Origin: Escherichia phage vB_EcoM_SA35RD
Length of the DNA: 64,000 nucleotides
Reading direction: 5' to 3' (one strand)
Sequence record: OL960577.1
The notes beneath the pieces are model-generated. The model saw only the letters and a program-made list of their open reading frames with translations, did not search any database and was not told the DNA's origin. Both the position numbers and the translations under genes were made by a program. Of this stretch, positions 1,269 through 63,054 are shown in pieces. Position 1 is the first letter of the stretch. Every line of letters begins with the position of its first letter.

Positions 1269-1550
1269 CTATTTTTCTGAAGCGCCTGAAATATATTTTT
1301 CAAGACGTTGTTTCATCAGCGAGCCGTTCTTAGCGATTTCTTCTGGTTTATCGCACATACGCAACAAGGCTTCAAGCTTAGCGATATCGCTGGTACGTTC
1401 AAATTTGCGAGTATCTATCTTACTAGCAAGTTCAGAAATACGTGCTAATAGACTTTCAGCTTCAACCAAAGCTGCACCTAGCTTAGTTGCAAATGTGTCA
1501 GTAGCTTCGTTAAGAATAGATTCTGATAAAAATTCACTATATGTTTTCAT
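1269..1550 (-). CDS. internal-protein-like (CTS-bearing), 93 aa
   Basis: Internal ATG at 1550 gives [10 protein letters not shown]; ATG overlaps the lysozyme stop (ATGA); the 1565 start adds a 5-aa extension not compatible with a CTS. Confidence 0.55.
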
Positions 1551-2035
1551 ATATACGCTTTCCAAGTTCCTGTTTTAAATGTTGAGATTACGCGTTTCGC
1601 GCGATTAGGTGTCTGACGATACCATTTAGATTGAGCTAGATTTACTGCCGCTTCATCCCAACGTTTCTGTTTAAGCATACGAAGAGAATTAGTAAAACCG
1701 GCGACTCCTGCTACACCCATTTGGAAGACCATATTGACCAATGCACACCGACGAACTGCATCTAAAGAATCATATACCGGTTTAAGTTTAGCATTACCCA
1801 AGATTCCGCGAACGGCTTTATCAACGTCTTCATTAAATAGCTTTTCAGCCTCATCAAGGGTAATTGTACCGTTGCATTTACGACCGATCATTCTGTCAAG
1901 TTCAGCTTTAGCTACGGCTAAAGACGGGTTCTTTGTTACCAAGTGGCCTATGCCAATCGTCCAAAAGCCTTCAGTGTCTTTGTATAAAGTCAGTCTAAGA
2001 CCTTCGTCATTACGAAGCATTTCAAATATATTCAT
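1547..2035 (-). CDS. e: lysozyme (endolysin), T4 gene e homolog
   Basis: [32 protein letters not shown]... aligns along full length with T4 lysozyme; ATG at 2035 with SD GGGAGG; the track's 2047 start is GTG. Confidence 0.95.
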
Positions 2036-2059
2036 AATACCTCCCACGTTTATAGGAGA

Positions 2060-2067
2060 TATTTATT
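2060..2067 (-). promoter_or_regulatory. possible variant late promoter (AATAAATA) at the gene e RBS hairpin
   Basis: Minus strand reads GTAATAAATATCTCCTATAAACGTGGGAGGTATTATG; one mismatch to TATAAATA; a transcript start here would fall inside the 5' arm of the SD-sequestering hairpin. Confidence 0.3.
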
Positions 2068-2069
2068 AC

Positions 2070-2528
2070 TTATAGGATAGTAGTGAGCACCTTATATAAT
2101 GATTTGCCCATCACATATTCCCATTGAGAAGGTTTAATTAAAGCGAACGCATCAAATTCAGGAATCTGTCGTCCGTCTGGGAATGTATGATAGGAATTAC
2201 AAGCACTGTTTCTGAATTGCTCGTGCTCTACAGGGATGGTATATAGGAACAGATGAATATTCTTATTGTCTGAGTAATGATGTTCACCTAGGTCTTTCAG
2301 GAAGGCAGGGTCATATTGTGTAAACCCAGTTTCTTCTTCGCATTCGCGAATAGCGGCTTCAATAGGAGATTCACCGGGCTCGACACGTCCTTTAGGAATA
2401 TCCCAGCGATGAGCTAAAGAACCTTTAGGACGAGAACCAGTTACACGCCCCATGAATAATTCTTTATCTTCGGTAAGGAAAATAATACCGGCTGATAGTT
2501 CTTTCACTTTATTTTTCTTACTCATCAT
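2070..2528 (-). CDS. nudE: Nudix hydrolase (NudE/e.1-like)
   Basis: 152 aa; Nudix box GRVEPGESPIEAAIRECEEETG; position immediately upstream of e as in T4. Confidence 0.85.
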   Translation of the reverse strand: MMSKKNKVKELSAGIIFLTEDKELFMGRVTGSRPKGSLAHRWDIPKGRVEPGESPIEAAIRECEEETGFTQYDPAFLKDLGEHHYSDNKNIHLFLYTIPVEHEQFRNSACNSYHTFPDGRQIPEFDAFALIKPSQWEYVMGKSLYKVLTTIL

Positions 2529-4266: not shown

Positions 4267-4296
4267 ACTATAACATAGTCCTATCAGTTTGTACAC
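4267..4296 (-). promoter_or_regulatory. early promoter cassette with palindrome around the -10 (PeSL-like)
   Basis: -35 GTGTAC, 18 bp, -10 TATAGT; 8-bp inverted repeat ATAGGACT/AGTCCTAT (4257..4264 and 4278..4285). Confidence 0.5.
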
Positions 4297-16600: not shown

Positions 16601-16616
16601 TTATAAATAGTATTAT

Positions 16617-16624
16617 TATTTATA
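16617..16624 (-). promoter_or_regulatory. late promoter TATAAATA for gene 4
   Basis: Exact TATAAATA on the minus strand 27 nt upstream of the gene 4 ATG; back-to-back with the gene 53 promoter. Confidence 0.6.
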
Positions 16625-34011: not shown

Positions 34012-34063
34012 TAAATAGATAAGATAAAGCAAACACCGGTCGAAAGGCCGGTTAGGAGAAATG

Positions 34064-50438: not shown

Positions 50439-50446
50439 TATAAATA
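50439..50446 (+). promoter_or_regulatory. late promoter TATAAATA for uvsW
   Basis: Exact match 30 nt upstream of the uvsW ATG. Confidence 0.65.
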
Positions 50447-50475
50447 TAGTTATATTTATTACATGGTAATTTGAC

Positions 50476-54265: not shown

Positions 54266-54277
54266 TATTTATAAATA
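54266..54277. promoter_or_regulatory. overlapping divergent late promoters for genes 26 and 51 (palindrome TATTTATAAATA)
   Basis: Plus TATAAATA at 54270..54277, 18 nt upstream of gene 51; minus TATAAATA at 54273..54266, 19 nt upstream of gene 26. Confidence 0.65.
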
Positions 54278-63018: not shown

Positions 63019-63054
63019 AGTGTTTTCCTTTTAGTAATAATTTATATTTATGCC

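Follow-up and report, generated by a model that had tools for sequence, protein, structure and literature searches.

The leader of the lysozyme gene e in the stretch of DNA analysed here (64,000 nucleotides, hereafter the window) is in all likelihood the Mosigvirus ortholog of the T4 e translational switch, operated by a single late promoter, AATAAATA, that starts transcription near 2054. From the leader sequence, its predicted fold, its homology, its conservation and the presence of the same octamer variant at other late genes we infer promoter activity, a start site and a translational block at e. Before replication, transcripts from an early promoter some 2 kb upstream would run through nudE into e, and a 12-bp hairpin in this early RNA would hide the Shine-Dalgarno (SD) sequence up to the AUG, so that no lysozyme is made. 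After replication, RNA polymerase carrying gp55, gp33 and gp45 would recognise AATAAATA (2067-2060), the 3' half of which belongs to the hairpin's 5' arm, and initiation about 6 nt 3' of the octamer, near 2054, would give an mRNA that lacks that arm and exposes its ribosome site far better. Without the second perfect loop promoter of T4, in place of which TATAAACG is found, e would probably depend on this one late promoter.

In T4, early read-through e RNA adopts an inhibitory structure and yields about 100-fold less lysozyme, and either of two late promoters close to the ribosome site gives rise to transcripts that lack the 5' part and are translated. These findings (McPheeters et al. 1986), including the mapped 5' ends, are taken from the summary in PMC3014915, where the structure and the translational block in vivo are presented as demonstrated for T4 only. 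The same summary states that close relatives have similar e leaders and that in "each" of them the DNA encoding the 5' strand includes a T4-type late promoter, and RB69 stands in none of the lists of its Fig. 5A legend (leader identical to T4, no structure, no gene e). The combination of e hairpin and late promoter in related phages is hence, on the account of that summary, already published.

Gene order and the start of e

By sequence identity the window is a segment of a Mosigvirus (RB69 group) genome, since 1.1 kb around the e leader matches Escherichia phage EP32B at 99.1% identity and RB69 at 97.7%, and nudE and e are annotated within the matched region. The features discussed below are collected in Table 1.

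Table 1. Features of the e region on the minus strand of the window
Feature	Coordinates	Strand	Basis or remark
Internal-head-protein-like ORF (MKTYSEF...; RB69ORF127c)	1269..1550	-	ATG 1550-1548
Gene e (T4-type lysozyme/endolysin)	1547..2035	-	162 codons + stop; ATG 2035-2033
Hairpin 3' arm GUGGGAGGUAUU, contains SD GGGAGG (2045-2040)	2036..2047	-	Folding
TATAAACG, 6/8 match, at the T4 proximal e promoter position	2047..2054	-	Alignment
Tetraloop AAAC	2048..2051	-	Folding
Hairpin 5' arm AAUAUCUCCUAU, contains anti-SD CUCC	2052..2063	-	Folding
Predicted late transcription start, +1 = 2054	2053..2055	-	Octamer at -13..-6
AATAAATA, predicted gp55-type late promoter element, A for T at -13	2060..2067	-	Position, homology, conservation
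TATAAGTA, 7/8 match overlapping the nudE stop	2067..2074	-	Sequence
nudE	2070..2528	-	Early-region gene 5' of e; stop TAA 2072-2070
Sigma-70-like promoter TGTACA-17-TATAGT, preceded by TG	4267..4295	-	Consensus scan only

The start codon of e is homologous to that of T4, where the protein begins MNIFEML. In the RB69 record (GenBank AY303349) e is annotated from an internal ATG at 65673 instead of 65688 (2020 instead of 2035 in the window). This start is misplaced by 15 nt, being downstream of the T4-homologous one, and it is the upstream ATG that fits the SD GGGAGG and the hairpin.

At its 3' end e overlaps the internal-head-protein-like ORF by the tetranucleotide ATGA, in which the e stop TGA (1549-1547) shares bases with the following ATG, whereas 87 nt separate e from ipIII in T4. 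This overlap suggests translational coupling, and because of it the ORF is probably served by the e late promoter as well and co-expressed from the same late transcript. Small ORFs opening with MK(T/M/S)Y.EF..E are found on the minus strand at 152-466, 530-790, 1269-1550 and from about 10375, and these openings resemble the capsid-targeting sequence of T4 internal proteins. The ORF 3' of 10411 has an AATAAATA of its own, 29 nt 5' of its ATG.

Upstream, nudE is the predicted route by which read-through transcripts reach e. Mapped by an approximate coordinate offset, the sigma-70-like site at 4295-4267 falls at the location of the early promoter Pe:67959, which Nolan et al. predicted in RB69, and a consensus scan of the minus strand found no terminator-like site between it and e; by prediction, this site is a likely source of hairpin-containing early RNA.

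A predicted hairpin over the Shine-Dalgarno sequence

The initial annotation described a retained SD-sequestering hairpin upstream of the e ATG, and the minus-strand string on which this was based, GTAATAAATATCTCCTATAAACGTGGGAGGTATTATG, corresponds exactly to 2069..2033. It had given the stem as 6 bp, ATCTCC with GGAGGT (2060-2055 with 2044-2039, one G-U), and this pairing is indeed predicted, but it is only a part of a 12-bp stem with three G-U pairs that takes up the SD and ends one base before the AUG. The minimum free energy of a 71-nt segment is -14.8 kcal/mol (z = -2.72, with 2 of 200 dinucleotide shuffles folding equally well), and the 37-nt leader by itself folds at -13.7 kcal/mol (z = -5.3, 300 mononucleotide shuffles). 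In modelled read-through RNAs with 5' ends at 2135 or 2085 the predicted probability of the SD being unpaired is 0.000-0.002, and by this prediction a stable stem would bury the SD as far as the AUG, as in a hairpin of the T4 e type. A search of Rfam with 1900-2300 returned no family at E <= 1.

The leader differs from that of RB69 by a single C-to-T change at 2059 (T on the minus strand, C in RB69), which turns a C-G pair of the stem into U-G and brings its energy from -16.3 to -13.7 kcal/mol, and which at the same time makes promoter position -5 an A/T base. This T is rare, the exact 91-nt leader being common only to the window and EP32B among the records searched. T4 has an 11-bp stem with an 8-nt loop (-13.3 kcal/mol), as compared with the 12 bp and tetraloop of the window (-13.7 kcal/mol), and typical Mosigvirus leaders are at -16.3 kcal/mol more stable than that of T4.

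Late-promoter-like octamers in the e leader

The T4 late promoter spans -13 to -6 (PMC1524935), and three of its bases, at -12, -9 and -8, are taken up into pockets of gp55 (PMC7892883). A list of 50 T4 late promoters contains 32 perfect ones; nearly all have at most one deviation (Geiduschek and Kassavetis), and the commonest natural deviation is A(-13), found in 9. Transcription from variant promoters occurs in vitro, and some of them have been linked to RNA 5' ends in vivo (PMC2988020). In most of five T4-like genomes, RB69 included, T(-13) is furthermore poorly conserved, with A or T being common (Nolan et al., PMC1524935).

Against this background AATAAATA matches the consensus TATAAATA at seven of eight positions, deviates only at -13 and retains A at -12, -9 and -8. 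It lies on the coding strand 24 nt from the e ATG, a T4-like placement, and its last four bases (AAUA in the RNA) double as the outer four bases of the hairpin 5' arm. The octamer is followed by the GC-rich anti-SD instead of the usual AT-rich segment, that is by TCTCC with 2/5 A/T. This is however no argument against function, since the functional distal e promoter of T4 is followed by CCTTC, likewise 2/5 A/T, and the AT-rich segment 3' of late promoter boxes is a tendency rather than a strict criterion.

The initial annotation held this to be the only late-promoter-like octamer of the leader, which is incorrect in so far as TATAAGTA (7/8) and TATAAACG (6/8) are also present. TATAAGTA is probably not a promoter, because one of the gp55 pocket positions, -8, is G in it (PMC7892883). 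TATAAACG deserves closer consideration, since it occupies the position of the T4 proximal promoter, retains A at all three pocket positions (PMC7892883) and is unchanged in 137 of 139 Mosigvirus-type records, so that it might still serve as a second late promoter like its T4 counterpart. We regard this as very improbable: the two mismatches at -7 and -6 compare with at most one in nearly all listed T4 late promoters (PMC2988020), and as 2 nt are missing relative to T4 between octamer and SD, a transcript would begin at 2041, within GGGAGG, and retain just GG of the SD. The conservation of TATAAACG is moreover explained by its role in forming the inner stem and loop of the hairpin, and outgroup genera have merely a TAT(A/C)A-type loop sequence at this place. 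On account of its mismatches and of a start that would cut the SD, TATAAACG is probably inactive as a promoter, and e probably has one late promoter only.

An exact TATAAATA further upstream within nudE had been named in advance as an observation that would speak against AATAAATA, but a string search found none on either strand between 64 and 14192, and hence none in nudE. In the window as a whole TATAAATA is enriched (19 copies against 7.8 expected).

The predicted late start

The convention that the octamer spans -13 to -6 (PMC1524935) would place the late start near 2054, in good agreement with the earlier proposal of initiation near 2055 within the 5' arm. A start anywhere in 2053-2055 would remove 9-11 of the 12 bases of this arm and leave at most three, and the proposal of a one-mismatch late promoter so placed that transcription starts inside the arm thus holds up by geometry and, as set out below, by conservation. 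When the correspondingly truncated RNAs are folded, the probability of the SD being unpaired rises to 0.15-0.22, and for T4 the same folding gives 0.000 in read-through RNA and 0.32 in the distal late transcript. Even in the late RNA so predicted, some pairing of the SD remains, with coding sequence as the partner (probability of being unpaired about 0.2), and T4 is similar in this respect.

Conservation of the leader among T4-like phages

A comparison of the e leader across T-even genomes had been proposed as a check, and for this purpose e loci were collected from IMG/VR and from named GenBank phages, with e protein identities down to 61%. Seventeen distinct leaders were extracted, representing at least eight named genera (Mosig-, Tequatro-, Dhaka-, Karam-, Gapriver-, Marfa-, Muldoon- and Jiaodavirus). 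More distant e homologs (at most 62% protein identity, including those of rV5-like phages) have no comparable leader and were omitted.

The heptamer ATAAATA, which abuts the anti-SD arm, is invariant in all 17 leaders at a mean column identity of 73%. At position -13, 12 leaders have A, three have G and two have T (T4/T2 and JS10). All 17 also fold with the SD paired, at -7.5 to -16.6 kcal/mol and with z-scores of -2.7 to -7.2, and in every one the partner of the SD core is located 2-3 nt past the heptamer. Pairing alone cannot explain the conservation of ATAAATA, since it persists unchanged in Karam-, Marfa- and Jiaodavirus, in which AAUA is outside the stem. Compensatory changes are few, namely CCCC/GGGG in Gaprivervirus as against CCUCC/GGAGG elsewhere and UGA/UUA in Muldoonvirus as against UAU/AUA, and the stem shows little covariation, its 3' arm being under constraint as SD. 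The pairs were tabulated from per-sequence folds anchored on the SD and not from the MAFFT alignment, in which the 5' arms of ACTCC-type and ACCTCC-type leaders are out of register.

The exact 45-nt RB69-type leader with AATAAATA is present in 137 of 139 Mosigvirus-type records, and the same leader with TATAAATA in none of the 139. A second perfect box in the loop is restricted to Tequatrovirus among the 17 leaders, the others having TATAAT, TATCAA or similar. By parsimony this suggests that the proximal e promoter of T4 is a lineage-specific gain and that TATAAACG need not be a decayed copy of it.

These comparisons also bear on whether octamer and hairpin might both have arisen by chance in AT-rich intergenic DNA. 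Judged by its frequency alone AATAAATA is not enriched, with nine copies in the window against 10.0 expected, and its significance at e rests on position and conservation rather than on frequency. A chance origin is however scarcely credible in view of the z-scores of the hairpin (-2.7 and -5.3), the orthology of the leader to an experimentally characterised T4 element, and a heptamer that is invariant and kept in register with the anti-SD in 17 leaders, and on these sequence comparisons it is effectively refuted.

The same octamer at other late genes

We scored octamers by a positional test, in which a site has to lie 8-70 nt 5' of an SD and an ATG that opens a same-strand ORF of 60 codons or more. 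AATAAATA passes at four of its nine sites in the window against a background of 5.0% of positions (binomial p = 6.5e-4), these being the sites before e, the internal-head-protein-like ORF (10411), gene 15 (34010) and inh (50460), and the consensus TATAAATA passes at eight of 19. Other single-mismatch variants fail, save by-products that overlap real sites and CATAAATA at alt. The latter, at 63045-63052 (-), is 26 nt 5' of the alt start codon (63018) with an SD in between, and may possibly represent a C(-13) late promoter variant for alt, the gene of a virion-packaged protein.

At orthologous sites T4 and the window agree in having AATAAATA before genes 10, 15, 67 and inh, at equal distances in the two phages for 10, 67 and inh, and in having TATAAATA before 4, 53, 9, 18, 19, 20, 22, 23, 24, 26, 51 and uvsY.-2. 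Among the orthologous sites compared, e is the only locus at which T4 and the window differ at -13. The A(-13) variant promoters of T4 have the very octamer that the window has at e, where T4 itself has T(-13).

Some late promoter boxes of the window are divergent and stand back to back or overlap, at 16602-16624 (53/4), 54266-54277 (51/26) and 50439-50460. Between 51 and 26 there is TATAAATA on both strands with a 4-bp overlap, and at 50439-50460 a TATAAATA on the uvsW side is combined with the AATAAATA on the inh side. A GC-rich hairpin, accggtcgaaaggccggt, lies at 34018-34060 (+) between the AATAAATA and the SD of gene 15, and could be a terminator or RNA-stability element of gene 14 within the gene 15 leader.

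The e site is missing from the list of 31 RB69 late promoters that Nolan et al. obtained with a hidden Markov model (HMM), which has nothing at e and nothing between 58753 and 72830, and the three AATAAATA sites of this region in that list score only 6.3-8.8 (PMC1524935). We infer that the e site likely fell below their threshold by virtue of the GC-rich (C/T)CTCC that follows it in place of the usual AT-rich segment. The GenBank and RefSeq records of T4 likewise have no promoter features annotated in the e region.

The absence from the published RB69 list (PMC1524935), together with the GC-rich segment directly 3' of the octamer and the lack of an exact consensus anywhere near, could be taken to mean that AATAAATA is inactive and that late lysozyme is made from read-through RNA, the hairpin being opened by ribosomes terminating at the nudE stop or by endonucleolytic processing in the stem. 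The nudE stop is indeed just 7 nt 5' of the 5' arm, and a terminating ribosome could reach the outer stem. This account is nevertheless improbable, since the same variant precedes other late genes in T4 and in the window, and since the invariance of ATAAATA over at least eight genera in an otherwise variable leader is hard to explain without promoter function. Opening of the hairpin by translational coupling to nudE is in itself unlikely, because T4 has nearly the same geometry (37 nt from nudE stop to ATG, 34 nt here) and its early RNA still gives, by the summary in PMC3014915, about 100-fold less lysozyme.

Relation to T4 and to other systems

AATAAATA at e is thus the ortholog of the distal e late promoter of T4, with T changed to A at -13. 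The T4 leader reads TATAAATA-CCTTC-TATAAATA-CTTAGGAGGTATTATG with TT in front, and that of RB69 and the window AATAAATA-(C/T)CTCC-TATAAACG-TGGGAGGTATTATG, with GT in front in RB69, and the two are orthologous by sequence and position. They have in common the nudE-e intergenic locus, the sequence GGAGGTATTATG from SD to ATG, the position of the distal promoter, whose 3' end supplies the outer 5' arm (AAUA/UAUU), and the logic by which a late start takes away this arm. They differ in that T4 has two perfect TATAAATA boxes, whereas the window has an A(-13) distal box and TATAAACG in the proximal position, and judged from the sequences two late promoters at e are a peculiarity of T4 and not a trait that defines the family.

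Hairpins that sequester the ribosome binding site and are relieved in transcripts from late promoters are also described in PMC3014915 for T4 I-TevI (td intron), soc, gene 49 and Aeh1 mobE. The principle, sequestration of the ribosome site in read-through RNA made early or in the middle period, is the same as at e in the window, but the genes are different and the sequences non-homologous, and these systems are functional analogues only.

As to how e is expressed, the initial annotation had left it open whether the phage tolerates a variant late promoter or expresses e differently from T4. The former is supported, A(-13) being common both in T4 and across e leaders, and the latter finds no support except that the proximal promoter of T4 is not intact here. 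AATAAATA is a normal and widely used form of the late promoter and no peculiarity of this phage.

Implications

There is little new biology in the e switch of the window, the biology being already known and AATAAATA being the majority state at the e leader. A textbook device, in which an early mRNA is masked by a hairpin that has a late promoter inside it, is conserved in many T4-like genera, and it is the double perfect e promoter of T4 that is the exception; the window departs from T4 only modestly, by having one promoter instead of two and a longer stem with a tetraloop. HMM-based lists of late promoters can miss the e site, as illustrated by its absence from the published RB69 list, and in the annotation of these phages AATAAATA should be accepted as a late promoter.

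It is also conceivable, with somewhat less than even confidence on our part, that the ancestral and usual e switch of the Tevenvirinae and allied genera has just one A/G(-13) promoter, joined to the anti-SD arm, that the twin perfect promoters of T4 are a Tequatrovirus-specific elaboration, and that the Mosigvirus TATAAACG is an intermediate or precursor recruited into a longer stem. If this single-promoter design is indeed ancestral, phages of the RB69 type would block e more tightly in the early phase than T4 does and make lysozyme more weakly or later, and the timing of lysis could shift.
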